Positions 8,908-25,446 of a stretch of DNA of 64,000 nucleotides are shown piece by piece (position 1 is the stretch's first letter; every line of letters starts with the position of its first letter). The stretch is from IMG/VR virus record IMGVR_UViG_3300031673_000021, positions 1 to 64,000 of that record. One strand, given 5' to 3'. Position numbers and translations under genes: made by a program. The notes beneath the pieces were generated by a model that was not told the origin of the DNA, searched no databases, and saw only the letters and a list, made by a program, of their open reading frames with translations. The DNA is from a virus.

Positions 8908-8961
8908 CTTGATTCCCCCTTTCGTGGTATACTTCTGGTGAATGTTTACCTTGCAGCTCTC

Positions 8962-11118: not shown

Positions 11119-11193
11119 TAGTCAACGGATATCCGATACATTGGTTAAATTTCTGTAGGTTCCCCATGCTAAACTGATTTCGAATACATCGGA
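11109..11193. promoter_or_regulatory. divergent control region with three operator-like half-sites
   Basis: TCCGATACATT at 11109-11119 and 11132-11142, and an inverted near-copy AATACATCGGA at 11183-11193, all between the two divergent HTH genes. Confidence 0.45.
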
Positions 11194-11214
11194 AACCCGA
11201 TAGGTGGAAAATTC

Positions 11215-11526
11215 ATGGATGTTAGACAACGTATTATCGACCTACGAACCGAAACTGGAATTTCTACGAACCGGCTTGCAAAGTTGGCCTCCATCGGGCA
11301 ATCAACGTTGAGCGATATTGAGGCCGGTAATGTCAAACCAAGCATTGATTCGCTCGAAAAGATTTGCCTGGCGCTTGGAATCTCGATGGCCGATTTTTTT
11401 GAAGATGGTGTCGATGAATTCTCAATCGATGTCCGCCGTCTTCTTCAGACCATCCAGTCCCTCACTCCCACTCAGCGAGAACTCTTGGACAAGTTCCTGA
11501 GAGAAATGAAAGGAGATGCCCGTTGA
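11215..11526 (+). CDS. XRE-family HTH repressor-like protein
   Basis: 103 aa. 'ISTNRLAKLASIGQSTLSDIEAG' HTH, on the opposite strand to the early operon. Confidence 0.8.
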   Translation: MDVRQRIIDLRTETGISTNRLAKLASIGQSTLSDIEAGNVKPSIDSLEKICLALGISMADFFEDGVDEFSIDVRRLLQTIQSLTPTQRELLDKFLREMKGDAR

Positions 11527-12993: not shown

Positions 12994-13862
12994 CGAACGC
13001 TCAACACCCGCATGGAACCCATGTTCACTTCCTTGGCAATCGTTCGATAAATCTCTTTGAGTCGCGGGTCATTGTCGATTACGTCCATGCGGTTGGTTTT
13101 GCTGACCTGCGTTTTTGCTGCCCCTGCATCCTCCATGCGCTTCTTGAGGTTTCGGAGGCGAGCGTCAAGGTCACAATGTGCGCGTTCTTCCAGCAACCGA
13201 TAACTGCGAGTGCGCATATCTTGGTAATCCACCTGGGACCGATACGCCGCGCTTGTGATAAGTCCATTCACTTGCCTGCGCCAATCCTCATCACGTTGGA
13301 GGAATGTGTCCTGCATAACCTCGACAGCTTCCGTGACCTGTTCCAGTTTCTGTGTTGCCTCCGCTAATTGGAGTTGTGTCTTAGCAACTGACTCGAACAT
13401 CAGGTGAAACATTTGCATCTGTGGATCTAACTTCGCAATGTCGATTCCATCGGTAGCTTTGACGATGTAGTAGCCATCGACCAAGGCTTCATATGCCGAC
13501 CATGCTTGATCCGTGTTGAGTGACTTCGCATGCATCCAAGCGCCTTTTTCACTCCAGAGATACAGACTGTTGACGTTCGGAGCAATTCCGCAATTTGCGT
13601 ATTCGCGTTTGAAATCTTTGAGTTCGTCGCCTTCCAGCAGGTAAAAATGTTTAGGTGCTGTGTACCTGGCAACGTTGCGGATGAAGTTTTCAGAAATGCG
13701 TCTTACATCACTTCCAAAGGACTCGGCCAACTGCGCCGTGGTCAGGACTCGTTGCCCGCCATGCTCAATCACCATTAACTCGTTCACTGTTTCAACCCCC
13801 TCCATTGGTAAATGTTTTGAATTGTCAAGGTGCAGATGGTGACTTACGCTTAAGTGCCACAA
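12990..13862 (-). CDS. antirepressor-like protein (ORF6N/KilA-N-type N-terminal domain)
   Basis: 'IEHGGQRVLTTAQLAESFG...ISENFIRNVARYTAPKHFYLLEG...LYLWSEKGAWMHAKSL'. Start uncertain (TTG 13862 or ATG 13805). Confidence 0.65.
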   Translation of the reverse strand: MWHLSVSHHLHLDNSKHLPMEGVETVNELMVIEHGGQRVLTTAQLAESFGSDVRRISENFIRNVARYTAPKHFYLLEGDELKDFKREYANCGIAPNVNSLYLWSEKGAWMHAKSLNTDQAWSAYEALVDGYYIVKATDGIDIAKLDPQMQMFHLMFESVAKTQLQLAEATQKLEQVTEAVEVMQDTFLQRDEDWRRQVNGLITSAAYRSQVDYQDMRTRSYRLLEERAHCDLDARLRNLKKRMEDAGAAKTQVSKTNRMDVIDNDPRLKEIYRTIAKEVNMGSMRVLSVR

Positions 13863-13870
13863 ACAGCTTT

Positions 13871-14101
13871 TTATGCCGAACTTGATTGACCATGTTCATC
13901 ATGGATGACAACATCGTCAAAAAAAATGTCGTTCACAGGCGTGTTGTAATGCTTCGCGATTGCCAGCATTAGCGAACCGTTTGGGTTAACGCGTTCCTTC
14001 TCGATTTGGATAATTGCTTGGCGCGAAGCACAAACTGCATCGGCTAACTGTTGTTGGCTCTCGTCATGGTCTCTTCTGATTTTGCGAACACAATTCTTCA
14101 A
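13871..14101 (-). CDS. Cro-like XRE-family HTH regulator
   Basis: 76 aa. 'ESQQQLADAVCASRQAIIQIEKE' HTH, divergent from the CI-like gene. Confidence 0.8.
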   Translation of the reverse strand: MKNCVRKIRRDHDESQQQLADAVCASRQAIIQIEKERVNPNGSLMLAIAKHYNTPVNDIFFDDVVIHDEHGQSSSA

Positions 14102-14228
14102 AGGGTCTCCCCCTTTCTCCGTGTCATCCTTGGGTTACAAGTACAGTGTATCCCATGGATTACATGCTGTCAACCATGAAGTACAGATATTTGCGTTTTG
14201 TTTTGTAATGTTTGGTTTACAATCAGCA
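14102..14228. promoter_or_regulatory. divergent cro/cI control region
   Basis: 127-nt AT-rich intergenic region containing inverted repeat TTGTAA-N8-TTACAA (14203-14222) and several TACA-containing repeats. No promoter hexamers assigned confidently. Confidence 0.4.
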
Positions 14229-15221
14229 ATGGGGGTGCATGTAGTGAATTTTGGCGAAGTGTTGAGAGTTCTTCGTGGTAACATGAGCCTGCGCGAAGCA
14301 TCTCGTTTAACAGGTATCAGCCACACATATTTAGATCGACTTGAAAAAGGGGTCGATCCTAGAACCGGGAAACAAATCGAACCGTCTGGTTCTGTCTTAA
14401 ATGCTCTCGCAAATGCGTATAACGTACCCGCAGAGCTAATGCTTATTTTGGTTGGATATATTGACATCATAAAAACGAGTCGAGATCCTGAAATGGTCGA
14501 AATAATGGACAATCTATATCCAACCACCGATAAAGAGCAAATACTTCGATTGATCGAAATGTGGAGAATACAAACAAATGACCGAAAGTTTGATTCGGAC
14601 AGAGAAAGAACATTGGCGGAAACAGACTTCATTACCCGCAATTTATCTCGTCAAGATACCGACCAAGGAAATCAAGACGATAGCGCAGGACAAACTACCT
14701 ACATTCCAAAGGACAAAATACCCATGCCGCAGAATGCCGAAAGGAGTATGTTGGGGTTCCACCCTTCACTCAATGTCCAGCGTAACCAACAGATCGTCAG
14801 AGATGCGCCGGACAAATACACCGAGGGCTACCGTGAAAAAGCTATAATGATCCCTGTCCTCGGTGTCATCCGGGCTGGTTACGACTTATACGCAGAGCAG
14901 CAGGTGATCGACGTGAAATGGGTTCCTGAGGGTGATGTAGCGGATGGAGAATATTTTTATCTGCTGGTCACTGGTGACTCAATGTCGGGCGCGAACATTT
15001 TAGAGGGCATGCGTGTATTGGTTCGGAGACAGGACTGGGTTGACGACGGCAAGATTGGTGTCGTCCTTATCAATGGCGATGAGGCGACGCTTAAGTATGT
15101 CTTCCACGAAGATTCTTATTTCATACTTCAGGCGGCCAATGCAACATATGCACCACGCAAGGTGCCTGTGGAAGAAACACGTATTCTCGGCCAAGTCAAA
15201 GAAGTCGTGTGGTCCGTATGA
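14229..15221 (+). CDS. CI-like repressor (XRE HTH + S24 LexA-type autopeptidase)
   Basis: Start set to ATG 14229. N-terminal HTH 'SLREASRLTGISHTYLDRLEKG'. C-terminal 'LLVTGDSMSGANILEGMRVLV...ATLKYV' supplies the Ser/Lys dyad context. Confidence 0.85.
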   Translation: MGVHVVNFGEVLRVLRGNMSLREASRLTGISHTYLDRLEKGVDPRTGKQIEPSGSVLNALANAYNVPAELMLILVGYIDIIKTSRDPEMVEIMDNLYPTTDKEQILRLIEMWRIQTNDRKFDSDRERTLAETDFITRNLSRQDTDQGNQDDSAGQTTYIPKDKIPMPQNAERSMLGFHPSLNVQRNQQIVRDAPDKYTEGYREKAIMIPVLGVIRAGYDLYAEQQVIDVKWVPEGDVADGEYFYLLVTGDSMSGANILEGMRVLVRRQDWVDDGKIGVVLINGDEATLKYVFHEDSYFILQAANATYAPRKVPVEETRILGQVKEVVWSV

Positions 15222-16618
15222 CGGTCGCTCTTTATATTCGTGTGAGTACGGATGAGCAGGCAAAAGACGGATTCTCCATTGAACATCAGAAACAACGTCT
15301 TGCAGCGTTTTGTGAGTCACAAGGGTGGAATTCATACGAATTTTATATCGATGACGGATATACCGGAACGAATCTGAACCGGCCACAACTCACGCGATTG
15401 ATTCGTCATGTACGGAATCGCAGCGTCAACATAGTTCTGGTGCATCGTTTGGATCGTTTGAGCCGCAAACAGAAAGACGTGCTTTATCTTCTTGAAGATG
15501 TGTTTGACTCCAATGATGTTGCGTTTCGATCAGCCACGGAACCCTTTGACACGTCTACCCCACTCGGCAAAGCCATGCTCGGTATCCTCGCTGTGTTCGC
15601 GCAATTGGAACGAGACACTATCGTCGAGCGGGCGACATCGGGCAAACATGAGCGTATCCGACAGGGGCTATGGTATGGGGGCCCAATTCCCTATGGATAC
15701 GATTGGTCAACAGAGGAACAGCGGCTTGTCGTGAATCCGGCACAAGCGAGAATCATTCAGGAAATGTACGAACACGCATTGCGCGGACAGCCTTATACAA
15801 CTATTGCGAAATGGGCTTCCAGACGCTCTAGGGAACGTTTATTCGGGCATCACAAGACACTCCTCTATATGCTGACGAATCCTCTTTATATGGGCAAACT
15901 CAATCAGCGTGGCGTACACATCAACGGACTGCACGAAGCCATTGTAAGCGAGGAGACATGGCAGGCTGTGCAGAAGGAAATTCGGATACGCAAAAACGGT
16001 CGCGCGATCTATGGAAAGTATCTTCTCAGCGGAATCCTTGTATGTGGTGTCTGCGGCTCATCCATGAAACACATACGAATACAAGACCGTCGATTCAACC
16101 CCCCAAAAATCCGCGACTATTATTTGTGCTCCACCAAGCATTCCGGTCATTCTTGTTCATCCCGATACGTCCCACAACAGGAACTGGAGGACCGAGTTAT
16201 CAACACATTGAAGGACAAATCCGTTGATCCCGACATGGTGATACAGGAACTTTCCGCCCGACGCGAGGATATCAATAGTGTAGAGTCAACGATAGACGCA
16301 CTCAATCGACAACTCGACGAGGTAAAAGTCAAACTGGAACGATGGTACGCTGCCATTGAAAGCGGAATGGACCTCGGCAAGGTTATGCCGCGGATACATG
16401 AGCTAGAGGATGAACAGAAGGCAATTATGCTGCAACTTGATGAATTGGACGGTGCAGACTACGAAGAAACAAACACACGCATTCTTGACTCCTTACACCA
16501 AATCGGACAACAATGGGATAACATGACGAATGAAGAACGCAACGCCGTTTTACACGCTGCGGTCAAGACTATCACGGTAAATTCGGACGGTACGCTCGTG
16601 TTCACCTGGGATGCTTGA
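15218..16618 (+). CDS. large serine recombinase (integrase)
   Basis: 'ALYIRVSTDEQ' catalytic Ser motif, 'HRLDRLSR', a recombinase domain, zinc ribbon 'CGVCGSS...YYLCSTKHSGHSCSS', and a coiled-coil. ATG 15218 overlaps the cI stop (ATGA). Confidence 0.9.
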   Translation: MTVALYIRVSTDEQAKDGFSIEHQKQRLAAFCESQGWNSYEFYIDDGYTGTNLNRPQLTRLIRHVRNRSVNIVLVHRLDRLSRKQKDVLYLLEDVFDSNDVAFRSATEPFDTSTPLGKAMLGILAVFAQLERDTIVERATSGKHERIRQGLWYGGPIPYGYDWSTEEQRLVVNPAQARIIQEMYEHALRGQPYTTIAKWASRRSRERLFGHHKTLLYMLTNPLYMGKLNQRGVHINGLHEAIVSEETWQAVQKEIRIRKNGRAIYGKYLLSGILVCGVCGSSMKHIRIQDRRFNPPKIRDYYLCSTKHSGHSCSSRYVPQQELEDRVINTLKDKSVDPDMVIQELSARREDINSVESTIDALNRQLDEVKVKLERWYAAIESGMDLGKVMPRIHELEDEQKAIMLQLDELDGADYEETNTRILDSLHQIGQQWDNMTNEERNAVLHAAVKTITVNSDGTLVFTWDA

Positions 16619-16633
16619 TGTTATCACTTTATA

Positions 16634-16690
16634 GGGAAACGCTTCAGTGTTTCCACTTCAAGTGAGAACAAAGACCCTCACCGAAGTGGG
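16634..16690. other. nested palindromes downstream of int (attP candidate)
   Basis: GGAAAC-N8-GTTTCC (16635-16654). CCACTTCAAGTGAG (16653-16666) faces CTCACCGAAGTGG (16677-16689). Confidence 0.3.
16667..16690 (+). repeat. 24-nt perfect direct repeat, left copy
   Basis: AACAAAGACCCTCACCGAAGTGGG, identical to 18513-18536. Weaker similarity continues for about 15 nt. Confidence 0.9.
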
Positions 16691-16803: not shown

Positions 16804-18513
16804 ATGTCAAACATTTCATTTAAGGACCGACGATATTGGGTCACAATTGCGGCACTTGTGTATGCGGTTGCCGAGGTTGTTTTGTTTTATCCTGTCACCC
16901 GACATCCATTTTCACGCTTTATCGGAGTTCCCGGAGATGCACAACAATTCATGTGGTATCTTGGCTGGTTCTGGCATGCCGTCTTCCATGGAATGAACCC
17001 GTTTACTTCGACTTATATTAATTACCCTCACGGGATAAACCTCATGACGAACACCTCCATTATTGCTGAATCAGTCTTGTTTGGGCCGTTCGCTTATGTG
17101 TTTGGCGTAACGTTTGTATTTAATACAATGAACATGCTTAATTTGCTGGTGATTGGTGTCATTTCATTTCTTATTTTTGATGAGCTGGGAATGCGAAAAT
17201 GGATCGCTATGTTTGCTGGGCTGCTCGCCATTTTGCTCCCCTTTACAACCGCACAACTTGCCGGTCATACGCATATTGTGTTTACATCTCCTATATTTAT
17301 ATTGATATATCTGATGATTCGCGCGATAAGATACGGTGTTAGAAGGCCGATTGGGCTCGGCGTTATTATGGGCTTGGTGATTGGATTTGAGTTTTATACA
17401 TCCACCGAAGTGTTTGCGACTTCTGTGTTGGTTCTCGCGATCATGTTGGCTGCTTGGTGGATGTTGGATCAATCGCGTCTATATACGCTTGCGGCATCTA
17501 TTCCCCCCGTCGTTTATATGGTTACTGCGCTCTCCGCATCGATCATACTTCTTCCGGGATTGTGGATGCTTTTCTTTGGCCCATATCGACCATTAATAAA
17601 CCCGACGCATGACCCAAATGTATTTGTGAATGATTTTCTCAACTTCATTCTTCCCACGCCAATGTATGCGCTGCACAGCGGTGTAACAACGAATGTAACC
17701 AGTCATTTTTCGGGAAATTCCAGCGAAGATAACGGATATTTGGGACTGCCGATGCTGATTCTACTTGTGTGGTCTGTGCAGCGCATGTGGCATAGGAAGG
17801 AAATTCGAGTCATTTTTATTACGTTTCTGGCTATCATGGTTTTGTCTATGGGTCCACATCTTCACATCCTTGGATATACAACAAAGATACTTTTGCCATG
17901 GATCATTGTTGAACATCTTCCGCTCATCCAAAATGCATTACCGTCGCGCATCATGTTTTATGGGGATATATTGGCGGTTGTGTTGATAATCTTTGCATTG
18001 GATGACTTGGTGTCATCTCAGACAAAGATGTGGAGTCAATGGGCATCATTGGGCTCGTTGCTCTTAATTTCATCCACATGGTTCCCTGTTACTCCGTTTT
18101 TTAATACCAACAATCCTCCCTATCAATCCGCGATAAGCTCGAACGGAATTCTTTATGCGACCCTCAGAGGACACCCAACGATGATATTAACAGATGCGTT
18201 CGGGAATGTTATGCAATCCTTGGCTGCGGGGCATTACGCATTCCCCGTGGCAAATGTATATGGATTTTCCTACGATTCATCCGCCGACGGATCATATCGG
18301 CCTTATTCCATCGATCCAGTAATTGAGCCACTCAACCAACAGGCTGTCGATACATACATCCGGGGAATGATCCAAAATACCCATGTGCAGCGGATACTGT
18401 ATGTGGATTCAAACAACACACAGATTCCCACCAAACTTTACAATGCACTTACCATTGCTTGCGGGAATCCGACCGCAAAAAGTGGAAACTTTATCGTGTG
18501 GGCCACACACTAA
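16804..18513 (+). CDS. large polytopic membrane protein (GT-C/YfhO-like glycosyltransferase fold suspected)
   Basis: 569 aa with many hydrophobic helices, first loop 'GVPGDAQQFMWYLGWFWH', and a soluble C-terminal domain of about 130 aa. GAGGTG SD. AT-richer than the surroundings. Confidence 0.75.
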   Translation: MSNISFKDRRYWVTIAALVYAVAEVVLFYPVTRHPFSRFIGVPGDAQQFMWYLGWFWHAVFHGMNPFTSTYINYPHGINLMTNTSIIAESVLFGPFAYVFGVTFVFNTMNMLNLLVIGVISFLIFDELGMRKWIAMFAGLLAILLPFTTAQLAGHTHIVFTSPIFILIYLMIRAIRYGVRRPIGLGVIMGLVIGFEFYTSTEVFATSVLVLAIMLAAWWMLDQSRLYTLAASIPPVVYMVTALSASIILLPGLWMLFFGPYRPLINPTHDPNVFVNDFLNFILPTPMYALHSGVTTNVTSHFSGNSSEDNGYLGLPMLILLVWSVQRMWHRKEIRVIFITFLAIMVLSMGPHLHILGYTTKILLPWIIVEHLPLIQNALPSRIMFYGDILAVVLIIFALDDLVSSQTKMWSQWASLGSLLLISSTWFPVTPFFNTNNPPYQSAISSNGILYATLRGHPTMILTDAFGNVMQSLAAGHYAFPVANVYGFSYDSSADGSYRPYSIDPVIEPLNQQAVDTYIRGMIQNTHVQRILYVDSNNTQIPTKLYNALTIACGNPTAKSGNFIVWATH

Positions 18514-18536
18514 ACAAAGACCCTCACCGAAGTGGG
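18513..18536 (+). repeat. 24-nt perfect direct repeat, right copy
   Basis: Starts inside the TAA stop of the membrane-protein gene and is identical to 16667-16690. Confidence 0.9.
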
Positions 18537-18555
18537 GGTCTTAGCTTATGGAGCG

Positions 18556-18585
18556 AAAAGAAAAAGCCCGCGCATGAGCGCGAGC
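18556..18585 (-). terminator. intrinsic terminator of the MazF-like operon
   Basis: On the minus strand: GCTCGCGC-TCAT-GCGCGGGC followed by TTTTTCTTTT, immediately after the stop codon. Confidence 0.75.
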
Positions 18586-19058
18586 TATGATTGTGTGCTT
18601 GTGGTCTTGTTGACGTTGTATTCGACGATTTTCTTTAATGTTTCAAACATCTGCAAGACAATCATGAGTCGGAGATCCGTTTGAAACATATCATCTGCAC
18701 GGAGTCGTCCTTGTATTTCTCCCTCAATCGCCTCTCGTGTGATGGTGTAAATCTGGTCTAACTTTATGTATGAATCGTGCTGTAAGATGCCAGGGTAATC
18801 CGATGCCTTGAGTCCCATGTGAAACTGCTGGAGTTGTTTGTGAACCGGGTTTCCCTGTTCATCCGCTTCGATGTTTCCACTTTTGTCTTTCTTTACCCAC
18901 GATGAAATTGGAGAGACAATGACTGTTCTGTTGGGTAATGTGTCATCACTGAGGATAACGGCCATGTGTTTCCCGTTAAGCGTATAGTCCGGAGTAACCG
19001 GACTTGGCGGGAACTCCCACCAAATGACGTCGCCTCTAGAAAATGAATTCAACGGCAC
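18585..19058 (-). CDS. MazF/PemK-fold toxin-like protein with C-terminal extension
   Basis: 'RGDVIWWEFPP...GKHMAVILSDD...RTVIVSPISS...SYIKLDQIYTI' follows the MazF/PemK strand pattern. There is a central insertion and about 40 extra C-terminal residues. Confidence 0.6.
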   Translation of the reverse strand: MPLNSFSRGDVIWWEFPPSPVTPDYTLNGKHMAVILSDDTLPNRTVIVSPISSWVKKDKSGNIEADEQGNPVHKQLQQFHMGLKASDYPGILQHDSYIKLDQIYTITREAIEGEIQGRLRADDMFQTDLRLMIVLQMFETLKKIVEYNVNKTTSTQS

Positions 19059-19060
19059 CC

Positions 19061-19372
19061 TTATTCACTCTCCGTATTCTCTTTAATGGATTGATTTTGA
19101 ATTGACCCGAAAAATTGTTGGTTGAGGTCTTCGTCATCATCCGTGTCGCGGTTGTCCACGCCTCCGACCAAACACTTGACGCGGAGTTGCTTGTCATTTA
19201 CGAGGTCAAAAAAATCCACGCCAGTTTCCTTCTTGAAGCGCGACAAGCCGCTTCCAACATCAACGTGTTCGTCTCGGTCCCCAACCTGCGGTAGTTTCAT
19301 GAGATCGAACATTTTTGGTGCTCCTCCCGTTGGTCTGTACGTGTTTCGTTTTTTTTGCTCTTCATTGTCCAT
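19061..19372 (-). CDS. putative cognate partner (antitoxin position), no known fold recognised
   Basis: 103 aa, ending 2 nt upstream of the toxin-like gene start, with acidic tract 'NRDTDDDEDL'. No AbrB/RHH/HTH motif seen. Confidence 0.5.
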   Translation of the reverse strand: MDNEEQKKRNTYRPTGGAPKMFDLMKLPQVGDRDEHVDVGSGLSRFKKETGVDFFDLVNDKQLRVKCLVGGVDNRDTDDDEDLNQQFFGSIQNQSIKENTESE

Positions 19373-19506
19373 ATCGTAGTCCTCCTTTCAGTTGCTGTCA
19401 AATGCTGAATTCTCGTCTCAGACGTATGTTCTCATGCTTATGACGTTACTATTCCGTATGTGACAGTAACCATTGTGGACAAACTGCTTAAAGTTAATCC
19501 TGACGA

Positions 19507-19535
19507 ACAAAATCCCCCACCCATTCAGGTGAGGG
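19507..19535 (-). terminator. intrinsic terminator after the 19542 gene
   Basis: On the minus strand: CCCTCACC-TGAATG-GGTGGGGG (8 bp including one G-U) followed by ATTTTGTT. Confidence 0.5.
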
Positions 19536-19541
19536 ACCGCC

Positions 19542-19787
19542 TCACTTCCTCCCACCAGGCAAGACGCTGAGTGTCACTGGCAGATTCGCTGCGTCTTCCT
19601 GATCGGGCTCCAGTGTCGCCATAAGCTCTGGCAGGTATGCTGCCAACTCCAAGAACTCAAGGTCAGTGCGTGACTTCCTGATGGGACAATTATCACAATT
19701 CCATGGACTTCCGCATTCGTACTCGCAATAGGCTGACAGGTTCACGCCGATATCCACTACTGCGTCCACGAAGTTTAGTTTGCTCAC
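19542..19787 (-). CDS. Cys-rich small protein
   Basis: 81 aa. GTG start with GGAGAGGAGG 7 nt upstream. Contains 'CEYECGSPWNCDNC'. Confidence 0.55.
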   Translation of the reverse strand: MSKLNFVDAVVDIGVNLSAYCEYECGSPWNCDNCPIRKSRTDLEFLELAAYLPELMATLEPDQEDAANLPVTLSVLPGGRK

Positions 19788-20043
19788 CCAGCGCCCTCCT
19801 CTCCGGTAGCTGAATCAACTCAATCGGCGGCAGATGAATGGTGTACGTGTCGCACTTGTATCCGTCTCGCTCGACCTTATCGAACGTACGTTTGGTGATG
19901 GGCCGCTCCGTTGACCAGTACACGCTGTCCAGGTTGCGATAGGTATCCGTCGTTAGTAGCTCACGCTTGTAGTAGTAGTCGTAAGTCTGATCGCCCCTGG
20001 CATATCGTCGGCGGATATACCAGACGGTCTCACGGCTGTGCAT
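19693..20043 (-). CDS. hypothetical protein (Tyr/Arg-rich)
   Basis: Start set to ATG 20043 (TAATG coupling with the upstream gene). Its last 95 nt overlap the next gene in another frame. Confidence 0.45.
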   Translation of the reverse strand: MHSRETVWYIRRRYARGDQTYDYYYKRELLTTDTYRNLDSVYWSTERPITKRTFDKVERDGYKCDTYTIHLPPIELIQLPERRALGEQTKLRGRSSGYRREPVSLLRVRMRKSMEL

Positions 20044-20291
20044 TACTCCAGCACCTCCAGAGTCAGGCGTACCTGCGTGTAGGGTCTGACTAGTTGCAAG
20101 GCATGCTCCAGCCACTCATTGACGTCTCGGCCATTCAAGTAGCGAAAATACTCAACATCAGGCTCCGTGTGCCGTTCGTAGGAGTATGGACCCCCCAACT
20201 GATACGTGATGGTAGGTCGTAACTCGCTGATTTCGGCCACTTTCGACATCCCCTTTGTGTTAGGATAGTTTATGATATGCTCCAGATTCAT
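20043..20291 (-). CDS. hypothetical protein
   Basis: First gene of the leftward unit, divergent from the XRE gene. ATG 20291 preferred over TTG 20312 (neither has a strong SD). Confidence 0.45.
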   Translation of the reverse strand: MNLEHIINYPNTKGMSKVAEISELRPTITYQLGGPYSYERHTEPDVEYFRYLNGRDVNEWLEHALQLVRPYTQVRLTLEVLE

Positions 20292-20374
20292 AATTGTTGC
20301 CACTTCGTGCAATTATTTTTATTTCTACAGGCAGGAATTAGGGCCTAACGCGTTGAATATATAAATGAGGTGTC

Positions 20375-20578
20375 ATGATGAACCAAACACTACTCAAACA
20401 AAAAATCCTAGAAAGTGGTCTTAAGCAAGATTGGATTTCAAAACAAGTGGGGATTGCAACAAACACATTAAGCCGCATTGTGAATGGGAAGGTTACGCCG
20501 GATGTCAAAACAGCCTTGAAGATTGCGCGAGTTTTAGGGACCACCGTGGAGGAACTGTGGGGAGATGATGCGAAGTGA
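20375..20578 (+). CDS. XRE-family HTH regulator
   Basis: 67 aa. 'KQDWISKQVGIATNTLSRIVNG' HTH. First gene of a tightly coupled plus-strand operon. Confidence 0.8.
   Translation: MMNQTLLKQKILESGLKQDWISKQVGIATNTLSRIVNGKVTPDVKTALKIARVLGTTVEELWGDDAK
20560..20578 (+). repeat. 19-nt gene-junction cassette, copy 1
   Basis: GGGAGATGATGCGAAGTGA, identical to 21244-21262. Contains the SD and the GTG start of the next gene. Confidence 0.9.
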
Positions 20579-21009
20579 ACACATTCAAAAATATCCGCAT
20601 TATCAACTATTGCTGGTCATGCAATGAGCCATACGACCACACACATGCGGATGCCAACGAACGGAGCGTTAAATGCGGTAAGTGCGGCGGTTTCGTGGTT
20701 TCACCATCTGGCAAAGCGAAGATGGAAGTTATTCCTGGCACGAAGTGTTTCCTTCTTCAGGACGCAGAGAACCATTGGATAGCCGCAAATTCTGAGGAAG
20801 AAGCGAAGCGGTGCTATCGTGATACCTATGAGGATGACGAGGAGGATTACACTATACGCGAAATGACGTCACAGGAGATGCTGGAGATCATAATATTGGA
20901 AGATGATTATGACCCGGGGCATAAATCCGAAACAGGCGAGGTTCATCGGACAGTTACCACGTTGTTGTGGCGAGTTCCGTTTGGTAATCCCCAACCAATA
21001 AGACTGTAG
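20575..21009 (+). CDS. zinc-ribbon, acidic protein
   Basis: 144 aa. GTGA-coupled start. 'CWSC...CGKCGG', with acidic tracts 'YEDDEEDY' and 'LEDDYD'. Confidence 0.6.
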   Translation: MNTFKNIRIINYCWSCNEPYDHTHADANERSVKCGKCGGFVVSPSGKAKMEVIPGTKCFLLQDAENHWIAANSEEEAKRCYRDTYEDDEEDYTIREMTSQEMLEIIILEDDYDPGHKSETGEVHRTVTTLLWRVPFGNPQPIRL

Positions 21010-21023
21010 GGAGAGATGATGGA

Positions 21024-21269
21024 GTGGCGGAAATCAATGATGTCAGCGTTCCGTTCTCTATGCACCATTACGGGAATGGAGAGCGATGGTCTTGTGACGA
21101 GTGTGGAGAAGATAGCGTTCGTACATGGGGAGATACCATTCCAACGCGGAATTATGACGGCGCTATTTTTCGTATGCATGTCGAATGCACAGCATGCAAT
21201 ACCCATATGATTTTGATCCCAAACGAGCCTCCGCAGATACAAAGGGAGATGATGCGAAGTGACACCTGA
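21024..21269 (+). CDS. zinc-ribbon small protein
   Basis: 81 aa. GTG start after GGGAGAG. Contains 'CDECG...CTACN'. Confidence 0.5.
   Translation: MAEINDVSVPFSMHHYGNGERWSCDECGEDSVRTWGDTIPTRNYDGAIFRMHVECTACNTHMILIPNEPPQIQREMMRSDT
21244..21262 (+). repeat. 19-nt gene-junction cassette, copy 2
   Basis: Perfect copy of 20560-20578. Here the upstream ORF reads through it in a different frame. Confidence 0.9.
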
Positions 21270-21468
21270 TGAGGCACGAATAAGACTACAGATATACCAC
21301 GATCAACAAACGCCACTCGACCCGTCCTATGCTCGTGATTTGTATCGTCTAGCTGGATGGGAACTGACGGATGGATTGAAGGAGTCGCCCATTGAACTAT
21401 CGGAGCAGCAGAAAGCCGACTTGTTGGATGCAGAGCGGTATATGTTTATGAGGGGTGACACCGAATGA
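21259..21468 (+). CDS. hypothetical small acidic protein
   Basis: 69 aa. GTG start inside the junction cassette and ATGA coupling downstream. Confidence 0.55.
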   Translation: MTPDEARIRLQIYHDQQTPLDPSYARDLYRLAGWELTDGLKESPIELSEQQKADLLDAERYMFMRGDTE

Positions 21469-21695
21469 CATCAGAGGAAGTAAAAGCAAGGGCTGTATGG
21501 ATACTAATAGGAGATGACACGACATCTGAGGAGCGTGCCGCCCATGAACTTGCACAATGGGCGCTCGAAGCTGTGAAGGTGTTGGAGAAGATGGCGAACA
21601 ATGCGGACGTTTGCGACTACGATATCGAATACATGGGACTCGATGAGATTATGCAATTGGCGTCTGAGTTCCTCACAGGGAAGGTGAGCGGATGA
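21465..21695 (+). CDS. hypothetical small acidic protein
   Basis: 76 aa with ATGA coupling on both sides. Confidence 0.55.
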   Translation: MTSEEVKARAVWILIGDDTTSEERAAHELAQWALEAVKVLEKMANNADVCDYDIEYMGLDEIMQLASEFLTGKVSG

Positions 21696-21856
21696 TTATC
21701 TGGCGTATCAAATCGGATGAAGACGTTATTGCAGAAACTCCATATGTGCTCAAAAAGGGCGAGGTCTTAGCATTTCCCGATGGACGCGGACCCTATAAAG
21801 TGGTCAAGGTAAACCCGTGGGACTATGTATATCACGTGGAGAAGGTGAGTGAGTGA
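21692..21856 (+). CDS. 54-aa ORF missed by the 60-aa cutoff
   Basis: MIIWRIKSDEDVIAETPYVLKKGEVLAFPDGRGPYKVVKVNPWDYVYHVEKVSE. ATGA-coupled upstream and GTGA-coupled downstream, so it exactly fills the gap. Confidence 0.45.
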   Translation: MIIWRIKSDEDVIAETPYVLKKGEVLAFPDGRGPYKVVKVNPWDYVYHVEKVSE

Positions 21857-22152
21857 CACGTCAGCCAATCCACGATGATGACGGGAAAATTATCGGCTCG
21901 TATGATCCTGATTTTCTCGCCAACTTGCCTGACATACCCTATCGGCTTATAAAGTATCAGTGTGAAGAGTGTGAAGCGGAATTTCTGATGGACGTGCAGT
22001 TTGTAAAAGCAAACCCGGTGTCTTACATGAACTGCCCAATGTGCGGTAGTGAGTGCGAAGATATGTCCGCGACCAGTGATGAACAGTCTGACGAACTGGC
22101 TGATTGGGGATGTGCATATCCCAATCCTCGTGCCGCGAGCCAAAGGAGATAA
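21853..22152 (+). CDS. zinc-ribbon, acidic protein
   Basis: 99 aa with 'CEECE...CPMCGSEC'. Confidence 0.55.
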   Translation: MTRQPIHDDDGKIIGSYDPDFLANLPDIPYRLIKYQCEECEAEFLMDVQFVKANPVSYMNCPMCGSECEDMSATSDEQSDELADWGCAYPNPRAASQRR

Positions 22153-22155
22153 CGC

Positions 22156-22407
22156 ATGTCTGAGAAGACGGAAGCGAGCAACCAAGCGGATAAGAATTTC
22201 CTGAATTCACTAAGACGTTCATATGTAGAAAATAAGGATGCAGACGAAATGTATGCCGACCGGTTTATGTCTGTTTCAAATGAGGCGTTAAATGAGGAAA
22301 TCATACAGGTTTGTCCAAACTGCGGATTCCCGACAGAACAATTCAAGTGTGCCCCCTTCTGTGGGAACTGTGGATATGAGGGAGTCTGCGGCGATCCTAC
22401 AGCGTAA
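22156..22407 (+). CDS. zinc-ribbon small protein
   Basis: 83 aa. AAAGGAG SD. Contains 'CPNCG...CAPFCGNCG'. Confidence 0.6.
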   Translation: MSEKTEASNQADKNFLNSLRRSYVENKDADEMYADRFMSVSNEALNEEIIQVCPNCGFPTEQFKCAPFCGNCGYEGVCGDPTA

Positions 22408-22411
22408 ACGC

Positions 22412-22450
22412 AAAAAGGCCCCCACCCGTTAAGGGCAGGGGCTTTGTTTT
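22412..22450. terminator. bidirectional terminator between convergent operons
   Basis: AAAAA-GGCCCCCACCC-GTTAA-GGGCAGGGGC-TTTGTTTT, an imperfect GC stem with an A-run and a T-run on either side. Confidence 0.6.
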
Positions 22451-22961
22451 ACGCACTCTGTTGCGGTTGTACAGAGTCTCCAAATACGACCTTGAACCGA
22501 GCATCGTTCTTCAGGGCTTCAATGGCCTTGTCAGCCTCATCGAACACACCTTGAATCTGTGTGTCTGTCATGTTGATACCAAGTCCAGACAGAACCATGC
22601 GCAGCATGACTTCGGCCTTCACCTTCTCGTTAGGCGCGAGTTCGCTGTACAGCTTTTCAACGTTAATTAGGATGCTCTTTGCCTCGCTGACGGCTGTGGT
22701 GGAATTGAGGTGGTCGATGACATGCTGGGCAGTCAACTTTCCAACCTTCGCCTTAGCCGCGAACCAGGGGCTTTGCAGAAGGTGTTCAAACAGCTTCGCA
22801 CCGTCTTCCAGGACCGTTTTCACGCCGCCCGGAATCTTGTCCTCCACGAACTTGACTTCCTTTGGAAAGTGACTATTTAACCACTTGTAACCGGTCCAAA
22901 GAATGGCCGCCACACCTGCCGCCTGGGAACCAATGACTGTCCAATCCGTTCCGTTCCACAT
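22449..22961 (-). CDS. holin-like protein (LL-H holin family pattern)
   Basis: 170 aa. Single N-terminal TM 'VIGSQAAGVAAILWTGY', and a long hydrophilic tail with 'LSGLGINMTDTQIQGVFDEA' as I recall for LL-H-type holins. Last gene of the lysis cassette. Confidence 0.5.
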   Translation of the reverse strand: MWNGTDWTVIGSQAAGVAAILWTGYKWLNSHFPKEVKFVEDKIPGGVKTVLEDGAKLFEHLLQSPWFAAKAKVGKLTAQHVIDHLNSTTAVSEAKSILINVEKLYSELAPNEKVKAEVMLRMVLSGLGINMTDTQIQGVFDEADKAIEALKNDARFKVVFGDSVQPQQSA

Positions 22962-22973
22962 ACTATCCTCTCC

Positions 22974-24311
22974 TTATCGATTGAGTAGTTTGTTGAGATT
23001 AAACAGACTCGCGGCAAATTGACCGCGCGAAATACTTTGATCCGGCTTGAACGTCCCATCGTTGTACGCAAACATGATCCCGTTTTGCAAGGACCATTCC
23101 GCGACTTGTTGCCACTGTGTATGGTCGATGTCAGAGGGAACCGCAGGAAGCGGCGTAGGTGCCTTGGCGTTCCACTCGCACGATGCAGGCTGTGAGGTGA
23201 TCCAGGTCAGGTCAGGCTTTTGCCACCTTGCAACAGCGGTGTAGGTTCCCGGCGTATTGGTTGACCACGGCACAGCACCCTTGCCTGTGTCGTCTGTCGG
23301 CACCATACCATCTTCCCCGTCGCTCAGTTTAACCATGGGATATACAGGGAGGTTCATCGTGTTCAGTGGCTTTCCATCCTGCATGATATAGCAGCCGAAG
23401 TATCCGGTCTCTCCTACCGTGTATTGCGGCTTGTCCCAAAATGCTGAGATGGCATAGGTGTGCTGGACTTCTGATTGCGGTCCAGGGTCTTGTGGATATT
23501 GAGGCAATACCGAATCTGGATAGCCGACCACGGCGTCCCAAATATATTGCTCTGCATAGGCGAGCGACATCTTAAACGCGCCACCGATCCCCCAATTCCC
23601 CCACTGGTTCATCGCCCACACATAACCGTCACGCTTCGTGAGATCGTTCACTTCCGCGTAGAACAGATTGACCCAATGGCCACCCAAGGATTGCTCTCCC
23701 TGTGCAGGCATCGAGAGAATACCTGTGTTAGCACACTGCGCCGATTCGAGGTCAGCGAACACGTCAAACCCAATCGTGATAACAAGACCCTGCGCGAGTG
23801 CATCAAGGACATTGTTTAGAAAGTTGGTGTCCTTCGTGATGTACTTCACCTGGTCGGGTGATAACGCCAACTGCTTGAGCCATGGACCTTTCGGTTCATC
23901 CTTGAATCGCAGGGCGTAGTCTACGCCATATGGGTCCTCGTCCTCGAACTGGACGCCGAACTGTTCAAGCACCTTGATGCCATCTGCGACGGTTGCGCCT
24001 GAGTCCTGATTCACATTCCCTTCGAGGTTTCGTTCCTCCCAATACTGCGCGAGTTCCGAGAATTCCACATAGTGACCACCTGCTTGTTGCAGTAGAGCGG
24101 CGCGAAACAGTGTCGTACCAAATCCCGAACAATCCCCGAGTTGACCCTGATTGAGTGGCGTTGCCGGGAACAAATGGCGATTGTTGGGGAATACGGATGG
24201 TAGTGGTTTCCCGCTGTTGGTATAGGTCCCCCAAATTGGCGGTGCAGACGATGCAGCGAGTTTGAGATGATCAACGCGAACGATTGGAAACCGATGGGCC
24301 ATTCGCATCAC
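22974..24311 (-). CDS. endolysin: papain-like (C1) cysteine peptidase + beta-rich linker + single SLH-like module
   Basis: 'NQGQLGDCSGFG' (Gln/Cys), 'GGHWVNLFY' (His) and 'NQWGNWGIGG' (Asn-x-Trp-Gly) follow papain-family order. C-terminal 'NGIMFAYNDGTFKPDQSISRGQFAASL' is SLH-like. Confidence 0.65.
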   Translation of the reverse strand: MMRMAHRFPIVRVDHLKLAASSAPPIWGTYTNSGKPLPSVFPNNRHLFPATPLNQGQLGDCSGFGTTLFRAALLQQAGGHYVEFSELAQYWEERNLEGNVNQDSGATVADGIKVLEQFGVQFEDEDPYGVDYALRFKDEPKGPWLKQLALSPDQVKYITKDTNFLNNVLDALAQGLVITIGFDVFADLESAQCANTGILSMPAQGEQSLGGHWVNLFYAEVNDLTKRDGYVWAMNQWGNWGIGGAFKMSLAYAEQYIWDAVVGYPDSVLPQYPQDPGPQSEVQHTYAISAFWDKPQYTVGETGYFGCYIMQDGKPLNTMNLPVYPMVKLSDGEDGMVPTDDTGKGAVPWSTNTPGTYTAVARWQKPDLTWITSQPASCEWNAKAPTPLPAVPSDIDHTQWQQVAEWSLQNGIMFAYNDGTFKPDQSISRGQFAASLFNLNKLLNR

Positions 24312-25060
24312 TTCCCCGACTTGATGAGTTTGTACAAGTTTTCGAGAGACGCCGCAACTTGCCCACGTGAGACCGGCTGGTCCGGCTTGAATGTTCCGTC
24401 ATGGTACGTGAACATCACACCATTGTCGACCGCCCATGTCACAACCTCTTCCCACTGTGTTCCTTTGACATCGGATGGTACTGTCACATTACCAACTCCC
24501 CATAAGATTGATGCGTCGTACACCTCGTCGACATCCACGTTGATACCGCACAGCGTCGTGCTGACCGAGTTCTGCCACATGGCGATACCAGGGAGTCTCT
24601 TACCACCACTCCATGCACTCGGCTGGATGATGTAGTCGACCTCACTCCTGAACGCTGTGAGGACTTGTGGCGGACCATAGAGACCTGTGCGGTACATTCC
24701 ACCCATGACAGCCTTCCATGCGCTTAGATAGGCGCGTAGGCCCGCAAAATCGGACGTTGGCATGTCATAGTCGACCGATGGACAGATACCGACGCCATGA
24801 GGGATGCCGAGTGACTGTGCGTGGCCGAGTGCATCCGTGGCGTGTTGCTTCCCGAGCGCCGCGTTGAAGGTCTTACCTGCGCCGCCTTCGTGGAATAGCC
24901 CAAGCGATAACCCGGCGTCACGTATGACCCTGATACGGTCGGTGGTCAGGTGATAGCGATTCAGCAGGCCGATGTAGCCAAAAACAGCACCCACGCCATT
25001 TTTCCTGAGCGCAGATGCTGTCTGAGGAGTGATGATGTCTACGGTGTCGATGGCTTTCAA
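24308..25060 (-). CDS. endolysin: DUF1906/glycoside-hydrolase-like domain + single SLH-like module
   Basis: Start set to TTG 25060 (GAAGGAAGG upstream, TTGA coupling). N-terminal TIM-barrel-like 'GVGAVFGYIG...' region. C-terminal 'NGVMFTYHDGTFKPDQPVSRGQVAASL'. Confidence 0.6.
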   Translation of the reverse strand: MKAIDTVDIITPQTASALRKNGVGAVFGYIGLLNRYHLTTDRIRVIRDAGLSLGLFHEGGAGKTFNAALGKQHATDALGHAQSLGIPHGVGICPSVDYDMPTSDFAGLRAYLSAWKAVMGGMYRTGLYGPPQVLTAFRSEVDYIIQPSAWSGGKRLPGIAMWQNSVSTTLCGINVDVDEVYDASILWGVGNVTVPSDVKGTQWEEVVTWAVDNGVMFTYHDGTFKPDQPVSRGQVAASLENLYKLIKSGK

Positions 25061-25446
25061 TCGTACCGCCTTCCTTCGAGATCGTCTGTCAGGACGCCAT
25101 TTGTGAGCCAACCGTGCCAACCTCGAATCCTATCTCTGGAATTGTGATTGATGCTTGGCTGTACCGTTACATTCGGTACATCACCCGTGACATCCCAACC
25201 ACTCCCGTCGCTTCTTCCTGTAGCAATCCAATCCAGACAAAATGGTTGTCCATCAGGAAGGCAGACATATAGCGGGCTACGTATTCCTATCCACCTGCTT
25301 TTGTATTGCCGAGATAATTCCAAACCAGAATACCCGTCACTTTCTAGTAACATCTTCCACACTTCTGGTTTGGTCGGGTCATACCACATCGCACCCGGAC
25401 GCTTACGATCTTCTTTGGTTTCGGCGATAAAACATTGCCATGACAT
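25057..25446 (-). CDS. conserved-looking hypothetical protein
   Basis: Start set to ATG 25446 (TGATG coupling). Contains 'GWDVTGDVPNVTVQPSI...WHGWLTNGVL'. No family named with confidence. Confidence 0.5.
   Translation of the reverse strand: MSWQCFIAETKEDRKRPGAMWYDPTKPEVWKMLLESDGYSGLELSRQYKSRWIGIRSPLYVCLPDGQPFCLDWIATGRSDGSGWDVTGDVPNVTVQPSINHNSRDRIRGWHGWLTNGVLTDDLEGRRYD

Follow-up and report, generated by a model that had tools for sequence, protein, structure and literature searches.

The locus described here raises the question of what a temperate phage encodes in an operon of small acidic and zinc-ribbon proteins, and whether such proteins are directed at the host. The window analyzed is a 64,000-nt stretch (positions 1 to 64,000 of IMG/VR virus record IMGVR_UViG_3300031673_000021). 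The phage is a temperate myovirus with a genome of roughly 73.5 kb and a Gram-positive (Bacillota) host; differently permuted assemblies of the genome measure 73,638, 73,624 and 73,527 bp. Its genes also include an S24 (LexA-like) repressor, MazF, SLH lysins, and baseplate and sheath genes. An earlier note on this DNA described an XRE-led operon of seven small ORFs (54-144 aa) between the integrase and lysis modules and proposed it as a candidate island for anti-defense or host takeover. The operon is present at the positions described, as are a recombinase and a lysis cassette on either side of it (Table 1). We give about even credence to the reading that it is a moron-type accessory operon in a hypervariable lysis/lysogeny slot, assembled by recombination, whose products would be host-takeover binders or modulators.

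Table 1. Features of the operon and its surroundings, in window coordinates.
Feature	Position	Strand	Description
Large serine recombinase	15209-16618		
Divergent intergenic region, presumed promoter/operator	20292-20377	.	separates the XRE gene from the - strand gene whose start is at 20291
XRE/Cro-C1-type HTH regulator, first operon gene	20378-20578 (20375 alternative start)	+	66 aa (67 aa from 20375)
Junction motif GGGAGATGATGCGAAGTGA (SD + GTG start + TGA), copy 1	20560-20578	+	HTH/o2 junction
o2	20575-21009	+	144 aa; N-terminal zinc ribbon C13xxC16...C34xxC37, C-terminal alpha/beta domain
o3, putative zinc ribbon C24xxC27...C55xxC58	21024-21269	+	81 aa; frame uncertain
Junction motif GGGAGATGATGCGAAGTGA, copy 2	21244-21262	+	o3/o4 junction
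o4, acidic orphan	21259-21468	+	69 aa, pI 4.5
o5, orphan	21465-21695	+	76 aa, pI 4.2, net -10; second in acidity to o7
o6, orphan	21692-21856	+	54 aa, pI 5.7
o7	21853-22152	+	99 aa; conserved N-terminal segment, zinc ribbon C37xxC40...C61xxC64, acidic linker, WGCAYPN motif
Horizontally exchanged cassette RBS + o8 + terminator	22133-22447	+	315 bp, 95% nt identity to L030/L031/L032
o8	22156-22407	+	83 aa; acidic N-terminal half, C-terminal Cys cluster C53xxC56, C65, C69xxC72, C78
Bidirectional intrinsic terminator shared with convergent lysis cassette	22402-22454	.	hairpin -28.3 kcal/mol, z=-4.4
Lysis cassette with SLH domains	22449-25120	-	

The XRE gene and the seven small ORFs (o2 to o8) form an eight-gene operon on the plus strand that ends at 22407. 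Independent coding support was obtained for six of the seven small ORFs, and a Shine-Dalgarno (SD) site is present at all eight gene starts. GTGA or ATGA overlaps had been claimed throughout, but they occur at only four of the seven junctions, with 4-nt GTGA overlaps at HTH/o2 and o6/o7 and 4-nt ATGA overlaps at o4/o5 and o5/o6; the other three consist of an 11-nt overlap (o3/o4) and gaps of 14 nt (o2/o3) and 3 nt (o7/o8). The smallest ORF, o6, was said to have been missed by the ORF track; it is a coding ORF with clear codon bias, scoring highest in the operon for codon usage, and public gene callers do call it. The products are small and soluble, all under 145 aa, and contain no enzymatic domains. 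Paired CxxC motifs can be read in four of them as proposed (o2, o7, o8 and, with its frame uncertain, o3), and the predicted acidity is likewise present, with a pI of 4.2-4.9 in six proteins and 5.7 in o6. Convergence on the lysis cassette at a bidirectional terminator was confirmed, the hairpin having U/A runs on both sides. A search of Rfam over 18000-23000 returned no RNA family; the single match in that interval was a sub-threshold Leu leader at 18560-18664.

Small acidic proteins encoded by coupled genes had been offered as a sign of anti-defense function, an argument that fails within this phage. Among its 34 other small early genes the median pI is 5.1, 47% fall below pI 5, and -4/-1 overlaps are frequent. 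Acidity and translational coupling are the norm in the small early genes of the phage and are not distinctive of the operon. Zinc-ribbon enrichment is distinctive (four of seven operon ORFs versus three of the 34, p=0.01), and nothing else that we found sets the operon sharply apart.

The manner in which the operon was assembled is most evident at its 3' end. Three samples contain a 96%-identical o8 protein whose gene context there is a different one. The shared segment covers the RBS, o8 and the terminator and has flanks unrelated on both sides to those of its counterpart, which sits in a ParB-led operon. The two o8 copies differ by 11 nucleotides, eight of them at third positions, and by three amino acids, a substitution pattern that indicates purifying selection on o8. 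The left edge of the cassette lies inside the 3' end of o7, and it is precisely at this edge that the C-terminal tail of o7 departs from every homologue; judged from this alignment, the tail is a replaced one. For o8 and its terminator, recombination at gene boundaries is thus shown at the level of sequence comparison.

Repeats at other junctions point to the same process. The exact 19-nt direct repeat GGGAGATGATGCGAAGTGA, for which zero occurrences are expected by chance in the window, is present in two copies that bracket o2 and o3 and is absent elsewhere in the window, and a 16-nt direct repeat (D6, 81%) flanks o6 at its two junctions. From these flanking repeats we infer that o2+o3 and o6 were also exchanged by recombination at gene boundaries. 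A related phage, L033, which has tail and holin-like genes in common with this phage, carries the same 21-nt junction at a gene start in its equivalent post-lysis slot, a convergent slot that in L033 contains other small and zinc-ribbon genes. Variants of GGGAGATGATGCGAAGTGA are found at gene starts in L030 and L023, and an 86-aa protein of L030 is 85% identical to an 80-aa protein of L033. A metagenome scan for the 19-nt junction returned two matches, one eukaryote-like and one in a bacterial metabolic locus; as both are unrelated, the motif is not a widespread element. On a rough estimate, a 19-nt match in a collection the size of IMG/VR is close to what chance would give; with the unrelated metagenome matches also in view, SD constraints may account for the motif as much as common descent does. 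It is essentially an extended SD with a GTG start, so translational constraint rather than recombination may explain part of its conservation.

Short gene-boundary 'linker' sequences were reportedly proposed by Clark et al. in 2001 and Juhala et al. in 2000 to promote module exchange among lambdoid phages. The junctions described here are likewise short identical sequences flanking exchangeable genes (19 nt twice in this operon, 21 nt in L033), but they differ from lambdoid linkers in being an extended SD plus GTG start and in having chance-level matches in unrelated metagenome contigs. On these comparisons the operon is a mosaic of swappable gene cassettes, a construction that makes it a plausible host-manipulation or anti-defense locus.

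Several of the small proteins lack detectable relatives. The operon region had no match to INPHARED phages by blastn; the o2-o8 concatenate yielded only weak matches to the o2 ribbon in tblastn against phages, and nothing against plasmids. IMG/VR scans with single proteins found no relatives of o2, o3, o4 or o7, nor of the 170-aa holin-like neighbor, and a tail-fiber query returned one locus (L036), related in one domain only. In-frame codon bias is present in o4 and strong in o5, and neither has a Pfam, PHROG or PDB match; among 5.8 billion clusters o5 matched only itself. In the Pfam, PHROG and PDB searches neither protein showed sequence homology to DNA-mimic anti-restriction proteins of the Ocr/ArdA type. 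The products o4, o5, o6 and probably o3 are without detectable relatives.

The reading frame of o3 deserves separate consideration. The public caller chose 21019-21210 (63 aa), the two frames score nearly alike in codon usage (0.029 versus 0.040 per codon), and neither has homologues. It is therefore conceivable, if somewhat unlikely, that our gene model is partly wrong, that o3 is the 63-aa frame or is non-coding, and that the operon encodes only three zinc-ribbon proteins. Against this, the two CxxC motifs are 27 residues apart, and of off-frame ORFs of comparable size only about 3% contain at least two CxxC motifs; the start of the zinc frame has the geometry GGGAG-N10-GTG, the 10-nt SD-to-GTG spacing being identical to that of o2 and o4; and the 3' tail unique to this frame scores well in codon usage. 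The frame also couples to o4. We favor the zinc-ribbon frame over 21019-21210 on the basis of the rare paired CxxC, the SD spacing shared with o2 and o4, and the well-scoring tail.

The claim that none of the proteins matches a known family holds insofar as no characterized match was found, but o2 falls in an uncharacterized Bacillales-phage family. Among 1.84 billion proteins, the family comprises 43 cluster representatives at E<=1e-3, with full-length relatives at E=3e-23 to 1e-14 and occurrences in Paenibacillus, Neobacillus and Salibacterium prophages. Homology extends over the full length of o2, and all four ribbon cysteines are kept, as are the PSG motif and the ExxxxAA motif; the conserved family motifs are CWxC...CxxCGGYVVSPSGK and DDGExHWIAA, and the invariant positions in our alignment (A2) are C13, C16, C34, C37, P44, S45, G46, E65, A70 and A71. 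Full-length relatives with the same two-domain fold include a protein of Bacillus phage Stahl (A0A0E3JJ68), and there is a weak match to PHROG 19413; the C-terminal end of o2 in the window diverges from family members. A fold search, which the earlier note had proposed as a check, lent its hypothesis no support: the AF2 model of o2 (pLDDT 87) had no significant match among PDB folds (best E=0.6), and its matches in BFVD were uncharacterized Bacillus phage proteins (E 1e-9 and 2e-8, TM about 0.6). Elsewhere the family occurs alone in early regions, with no other operon genes nearby. Its members belong to the main early operon, with replication genes on one side, sigma-like late regulators or portal genes on the other, and Mom and DNA methyltransferase genes nearby, whereas here o2 is part of a separate XRE-led operon. 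The match of o2 to an ordinary, if uncharacterized, early-gene family goes part of the way toward what the earlier note had named as refuting its reading.

For o7, only three homologue clusters were found (55-78% identity). The homologue in L023 lies behind an XRE gene related to that of the operon and among small Cys-rich genes, one neighbor having a weak match to PF14354 Lar (E=1.6e-3). Another homologue, in an Alicyclobacillus MAG, has RadC nearby and precedes an ArdC-N/MPTase gene by about 0.5 kb; among the homologue contexts examined (L021-L029), this ArdC association is a single locus. Like the Lar restriction-alleviation proteins of the Rac prophage (PF14354/TIGR03655/PHROG 6422), o7 is small and phage-encoded and has a CxxC...CxxC ribbon. 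It matches Lar-like PHROG 6422 at E=1e-4, but the similarity is confined to the ribbon and o7 scores far under curated cutoffs (15.6 bits against TIGR03655, cutoff 39.6; no match to PF14354 at E<=1), and it carries additional conserved motifs at both termini. A zinc-ribbon match to PADLOC PDC-M14A covers 45 residues (1.2e-5). The AF2 model of o7, built from four sequences, was unusable (pLDDT 55).

The first gene is a clear member of PF01381 HTH_3 (E=6e-12; 45.9 bits versus a gathering cutoff of 23), residues 7-61 covering profile positions 1-55 of 55. ATG 20378 has better SD spacing than 20375 and is also the start in the public gene call. The protein matches PHROG transcriptional repressor/regulator families and otherwise has generic HTH_3/XRE matches only, as are those in PADLOC-DB v2 (PDC-M69A at 1e-7, RmrA and capH). 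It is 41% identical to the 66-aa XRE protein that heads the L023 operon, versus only 26-33% to the other HTH proteins of this phage, and the region upstream of its gene has patchy similarity to the corresponding region of L023. No sigma-70-like promoter was found in the divergent intergenic region, where direct reading reveals TATAAA at 20360-20365 without a -35 element. A search upstream of the XRE gene for repeats with a seed of at least 6, inverted ones included, returned none; the sole inverted-repeat candidate (8 nt, one mismatch, ATAATTGT/GCAATTAT at 20290-20316) overlaps the start of the divergent gene. When operators common to the operon, the CI/Ant region and the second switch region were sought, only the 9-mer TAACGCGTT was recovered, which is not convincing. 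A type II toxin-antitoxin pair formed by the HTH protein and o2 was considered and rejected, as o2 has no toxin-family match and no HTH gene precedes its homologues in other genomes; the score against HigA TIGR02607 was 29.7 bits (cutoff 47.7). Likewise rejected was a satellite or integrative element at 16.6-22.4 kb, a block without its own recombinase or replication gene.

We hypothesize that the 66-aa XRE/Cro-like protein would be made first and would probably autoregulate the unit. As the sequence shows, the seven downstream cistrons are translated from one mRNA through coupling or closely spaced strong SD sites; sequence and folding show that transcription stops at the strong bidirectional hairpin, which also insulates the convergent lysis genes. 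On infection or induction, the o2-o8 products may bind stoichiometrically to, or modulate, proteins or nucleic acids of the host or of competitors in the service of host takeover, with anti-defense as one sub-case.

Such a unit resembles the moron, a concept reportedly introduced by Juhala, Hendrix and colleagues in 2000, in its post-lysis lysogenic-conversion slot. As in that model, the operon is discrete, has its own terminator, occupies the interval from the lysis genes to the integrase/att end, and has a slightly lower GC content (47-48% versus about 52%); gene replacement between related genomes (different genes at the same position in L033) and cassette sharing with an unrelated context (o8) are further parallels. 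It departs from morons in being eight genes with their own regulator rather than a single gene, and in the negative promoter search. The operon also resembles acr-aca operons and anti-defense islands in combining small, mostly acidic orphans and a small HTH regulator in one transcription unit within an accessory region. In characterized acr-aca operons the aca gene is usually downstream of the acr genes. Here the HTH gene is first, searches of Pfam, PHROG and PDB sequences revealed no homology to known Acr or Aca proteins, and no convincing operator palindrome was found; to this extent the Aca-like logic that had been proposed lacks support.

A dedicated anti-defense island, in which at least one of o2-o8 blocks restriction-modification, CRISPR-Cas or another form of host immunity while the XRE protein damps a strong early promoter as an Aca-like repressor, is in our judgment unlikely. 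Small acidic proteins, a dedicated HTH gene and an accessory slot are consistent with it, as are loose anti-restriction neighborhood links in two gene families (ArdC-N/MPTase for o7, Mom and methyltransferase for o2) and the weak Lar-like similarities of o7 and of its neighbor in L023. However, no known Acr, anti-restriction or defense family in Pfam, NCBIfam, PHROGs, PADLOC or PDB sequences was matched above threshold, no validated anti-CRISPR homologue was found in Pfam, PHROG or PDB sequences, and a literature search for zinc-ribbon anti-defense proteins returned nothing pertinent. The unmatched o2 fold, the single ArdC locus, the commonplace acidity and the leading position of the HTH gene argue in the same direction. 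What stands of the original proposal is a discrete, separately regulated accessory unit of small mobile orphans in the variable slot between the lysis and lysogeny modules; the features offered for its function are not diagnostic here. A more elaborate version, rather less probable, would be a counter-defense or host-takeover cassette array, in which o7, o8, o5 and perhaps the o2 family represent new families of zinc-ribbon and acidic inhibitors that related temperate phages swap at the conserved 19-21-nt RBS-GTG junction, with expression restrained by a dedicated XRE lineage shared with L023.

Alternatively, the products may be ordinary phage-development proteins, that is, zinc-ribbon regulators or accessories of replication, transcription or packaging, encoded in a second early operon with no role in host conflict. 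The presence of o2 relatives in ordinary early operons means that the operon genes could be routine development factors rather than host-directed ones; zinc ribbons are common nucleic-acid- and RNAP-binding modules, weak matches to Elf1, S27e and RpoP-type ribbons were seen, and the properties of the operon are like those of the main early region. The extremely patchy presence of the genes (an orphan in o5, three homologue clusters for o7), the cassette turnover and the different genes in the L033 slot argue against core developmental roles, and we regard this explanation as unlikely, to about the same degree as the dedicated anti-defense island. Least probable is a lysogen-expressed exclusion or defense unit, transcribed from the prophage and protecting the lysogen against other phages. 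The operon does adjoin other moron-like units (a MazF-type toxin module and a 569-aa membrane protein with an exact 24-nt repeat on either side), shares a strand with the repressor and integrase genes, has its own terminator, and includes the two weak PADLOC matches noted above. These matches, however, are to a generic HTH and a zinc ribbon only, the soluble products lack any effector-type domain (nuclease, NTPase, TIR or membrane toxin), and the o2 family lies within the lytic early operons of other phages.

Phage genomes contain thousands of orphan-gene clusters like this operon, which is in that respect fairly ordinary phage "dark matter". The value of the operon lies in being a clean, small example of a phage accessory operon assembled cassette by cassette at gene boundaries. 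If any of its proteins inhibits a defense system or a core host machine, that protein would found a new family, and proof of the operon's function could give the o2 family of Bacillales phages its first function.

The XRE-led operon is an accessory (moron-type) orphan operon, of a kind that would not surprise a phage specialist. It is a coupled polycistron that has a regulator gene and a terminator to itself, occupies a hypervariable accessory slot and has been put together from exchangeable cassettes.

The earlier description of an HTH gene leading seven short plus-strand ORFs (o2 to o8) was borne out. The lead gene encodes a clear XRE/Cro-C1 HTH protein (PF01381, E=6e-12, well over the cutoff), which also matches PHROG repressor/regulator families and has no close paralogue among the phage's four other HTH proteins (26-33% identity). 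The public gene call starts at ATG 20378, which is also the better spaced from its Shine-Dalgarno (SD) sequence; SD sequences are present at all operon starts. The genes had been described as joined by GTGA/ATGA overlaps, which holds for four of the seven junctions (4 nt at HTH/o2, o4/o5, o5/o6 and o6/o7), whereas o3 and o4 overlap by 11 nt and gaps of 14 and 3 nt lie at o2/o3 and o7/o8, respectively. A hairpin at 22402-22454 (-28.3 kcal/mol, z=-4.4) closes the operon; it has an A-run on its 5' side and a U-run on its 3' side and can therefore terminate both the operon and the convergent lysis cassette, as had been proposed. The GC content of the operon is 47-48%, versus ~52% phage-wide. Neither a sigma-70-type promoter nor a convincing operator was found upstream, so the timing of the operon and its autoregulation by the XRE protein stay inferential.

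Features of the operon and its surroundings
Feature	Position	Strand	Description
HTH	20375/20378-20578	+	XRE/Cro-C1
o2	20575-21009	+	144 aa
o3	21024-21269	+	81 aa
o4	21259-21468	+	69 aa
o5	21465-21695	+	76 aa
o6	21692-21856	+	54 aa
o7	21853-22152	+	99 aa
o8	22156-22407	+	83 aa
Repressor	14082/14208-15221		S24/LexA-like
Large serine recombinase	15209-16618		
MazF/PemK toxin and upstream partner	18585-19372	-	PF02452, E=1.6e-13
Two or three small genes	up to 20291	-	
Lysis cassette	beyond operon	-	170-aa one-TM protein and two SLH-domain lysins

In-frame codon bias is clear for o4, o5 and o6. The top score belongs to o6, which was thought to be a missed ORF and is in fact called in public collections. 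Homologues of o7 share 55-78% identity with 39 invariant columns, and comparison of o8 with another natural copy shows 11 nt differences, eight of them at third-codon positions, that together give only three amino-acid changes. The coding status of o2 is backed by an existing protein family, and antisense ORFs over the operon score as non-coding. The single weak point of the gene model is o3, for which a public gene caller picked an alternative frame (21019-21210) that codon statistics do not distinguish from the zinc-ribbon frame. On sequence grounds we favor the zinc-ribbon frame, because among off-frame ORFs of this length across the window only ~3% contain paired CxxC motifs, its GGGAG-N10-GTG geometry is the same as that of o2 and o4, and the 3' tail unique to it has a coding score and is coupled to o4. 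As reported earlier, four of the proteins (o2, o3, o7 and o8) have paired CxxC motifs, o3 in the frame favored here.

The window covers nearly the whole of a temperate myovirus-type phage, with baseplate J, sheath initiator and tail-tube genes and a portal ~28-30% identical to those of large Bacillus and Lysinibacillus myoviruses. The same genome has been assembled at 73,638 bp (ENA ERZ27256810), 73,624 bp (JGI) and 73,527 bp (Logan SRR8554505) with differing start points, and the window spans the end of the ENA contig, which suggests a complete, circularly permuted genome without host flanks. Rightwards, the order is repressor and recombinase (both plus strand), a 569-aa membrane protein, the MazF/PemK block, small genes, operon and lysis cassette. 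The operon thus lies between the integrase and lysis modules, as first read, in the variable slot that classically separates lysis from lysogeny functions, and beside other moron-like units. The host is probably within the Alicyclobacillaceae/Paenibacillaceae part of Bacillota, based upon the SLH lysins, an o7 homologue in an Alicyclobacillus MAG, and o2 relatives in Paenibacillus, Neobacillus and Salibacterium. The two adjoining lysin-like genes (22974-25120, minus strand) each end in S-layer-homology (SLH) domains, and one carries an Rv2525c-type glycoside-hydrolase-like domain; the pair points to an S-layer or SCWP-anchored wall in the host.

Several other features of this region were observed. 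An exact 24-nt direct repeat, AACAAAGACCCTCACCGAAGTGGG, flanks the membrane-protein gene (16804-18513), with one copy just past the recombinase gene (16667-16690) and the other directly after the membrane gene's stop (18513-18536); the arrangement resembles a moron insertion in which a hairpin was duplicated, or else an att-like site. Ahead of the MazF/PemK toxin comes an acidic partner of 103 aa that matches no family, and just upstream of this pair is the sole good sigma-70-like promoter of the region (19401-19373; TTGACA, 17-nt spacer, TACGAT). Terminator-like hairpins at 19503-19535 and 22408-22440, 76% alike over 33 nt, enclose the entire divergent unit 19542-22407. They have a common stem, CCCCCACCC; the stem 9-mer occurs just three times in the window. 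An 81-aa Cys-rich ORF (19542-19787, minus strand), absent from the public gene call, overlaps the 3' end of a called 116-aa gene (19693-20043) by 95 nt; 19373-19692 is otherwise without annotation. The phage has two switch-like regions, at about 11098-11526 and 13788-14207. One has an S24/LexA-type repressor opposite an ORF6N/KilAC anti-repressor across a 420-nt gap, and the other a classic divergent HTH pair (103 and 78 aa) followed by a 91-aa HTH gene.

Evidence for mosaic assembly begins with the 19-mer GGGAGATGATGCGAAGTGA (SD, spacer, GTG start, TGA), which has exactly two copies, at HTH/o2 and o3/o4, enclosing o2 and o3; none would be expected in the window by chance. A close variant lies ahead of o3, a 16-nt repeat (81% identity) flanks o6, and the motif is absent among the phage's ~40 other early genes. 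It is largely an extended SD (GGAGaTGAT versus the anti-SD complement GGAGGTGAT) plus start codon, and by rough estimate an exact match of 19 nt is close to what chance would give at the scale of the database. Two metagenome matches to it were both unrelated. The sole IMG/VR match to the motif was in a related phage (L033) with a tail-fiber region and holin-like gene homologous to the window's, where an identical 21 nt is found at a gene start in a convergent operon that likewise follows the lysis genes. That slot holds different genes, encoding proteins of 177, 80, 77, 200, 153 and 189 aa, several of them Cys-rich. The last gene of the L033 operon (8709-9278, minus strand) is CxxC-rich and runs 17 nt into the 3' end of the holin-like gene; no terminator separates the two, in contrast to the window. 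Motif variants are found ahead of the 109-aa gene of a ParB-led operon containing o8 (L030) and ahead of the o7 homologue of a second XRE-led operon (L023), and the 86-aa protein of L030 shares 85% identity with the 80-aa protein of L033. From the common motif and this protein pair, it follows that the window, L030, L033 and L023 loci form a small network of elements swapping small-gene cassettes. Recombination may occur at the junction motif itself.

The o8 cassette (22133-22447; RBS, gene and terminator; 315 bp) is 95% identical to a segment in three other samples, where it comes after ParB-like, 86-aa, 109-aa and 57-aa genes and different genes face its far side. Its left breakpoint falls within the 3' end of o7, at the very point where the o7 tail diverges from its homologues. 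For o7, only three homologue clusters were found among 5.8 billion. The L023 homologue (78% identical) is in an operon led by a 66-aa XRE protein, 41% identical to the window's, with further Cys-rich small genes; in L024-L029, the homologue is within a string of coupled small genes. o5 matched only itself, and o3, o4 and o6 form singleton clusters or none, with no match in Pfam, PHROG, NCBIfam, PADLOC or PDB, or by tblastn against phages and plasmids. Four of the proteins are essentially without relatives, and the operon is genuinely uncharacterized.

None of the products had earlier been matched to a known family. An exhaustive HMMER comparison with 1.84 billion representatives placed o2 in an uncharacterized phage family of 43 proteins (E<=1e-3; full-length relatives E=3e-23 to 1e-14). 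Its members combine an N-terminal ribbon (CWxC...CxxCGGYVVSPSGK) with a C-terminal alpha/beta domain (DDGExHWIAA..EEA), and each domain is also found alone. Structure prediction and a fold search, as previously suggested, gave a good AF2 model (pLDDT 87) with no significant match in PDB and full-length matches to uncharacterized Bacillus phage proteins in BFVD (E 1e-9 and 2e-8, TM about 0.6). Elsewhere, o2 homologues sit in the main early/middle region of phages, near a DNA methyltransferase and sigma-r4 protein (L002, L018), Mom and MT-A70 genes (L019) or a portal gene (L004); no other operon gene was found beside them.

It was proposed that the operon is an anti-defense island, which we consider unlikely. 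The neighborhoods of homologues lend it some support, including the methyltransferase and Mom genes near o2 relatives and, in the Alicyclobacillus MAG (L021, JAIMBS010000180.1, 1-7827), an o7 homologue between RecU and an ArdC-N/MPTase-PolyVal gene, with Arc and RadC farther on and DUF5131 also present; this locus resembles an anti-restriction or leading-region-like part of a mobile element. Lar-like ribbons add to this support. The o7 ribbon resembles Lar-like PHROG 6422 (1e-4), PADLOC PDC-M14A (1e-5), TIGR03655 (15.6 bits; cutoff, 39.6) and Elf1; the likeness is confined to the zinc ribbon and lies under membership level in every case. No product reached membership of a known anti-defense family. 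Most of the proteins are indeed acidic (pI 4.2-4.9 in six of seven; o6, 5.7), yet acidity is not distinctive in this phage. Among 34 small genes (<=150 aa) of its early region, the median pI is 5.1, 47% are under pI 5 and -4/-1 overlaps are frequent, so that acidity is not significantly enriched in the operon (6/7 versus 16/34, p=0.10). Paired-CxxC proteins are enriched (4/7 versus 3/34, p=0.01).

A lysogen-expressed exclusion unit is quite improbable, as the proteins are without effector domains and o2 has an early-lytic context in other phages. That these are ordinary phage-development genes, as the early/middle location of o2 relatives might imply, is doubtful given their extreme patchiness and turnover. 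Most likely, on infection or induction the o2-o8 products would bind macromolecules of the host or of competitors stoichiometrically, since they lack enzymatic domains and are of too small a size for effectors, and the XRE protein would autoregulate the operon. With its cassette boundaries and repeated junction, the operon is a neat example of mosaic assembly.
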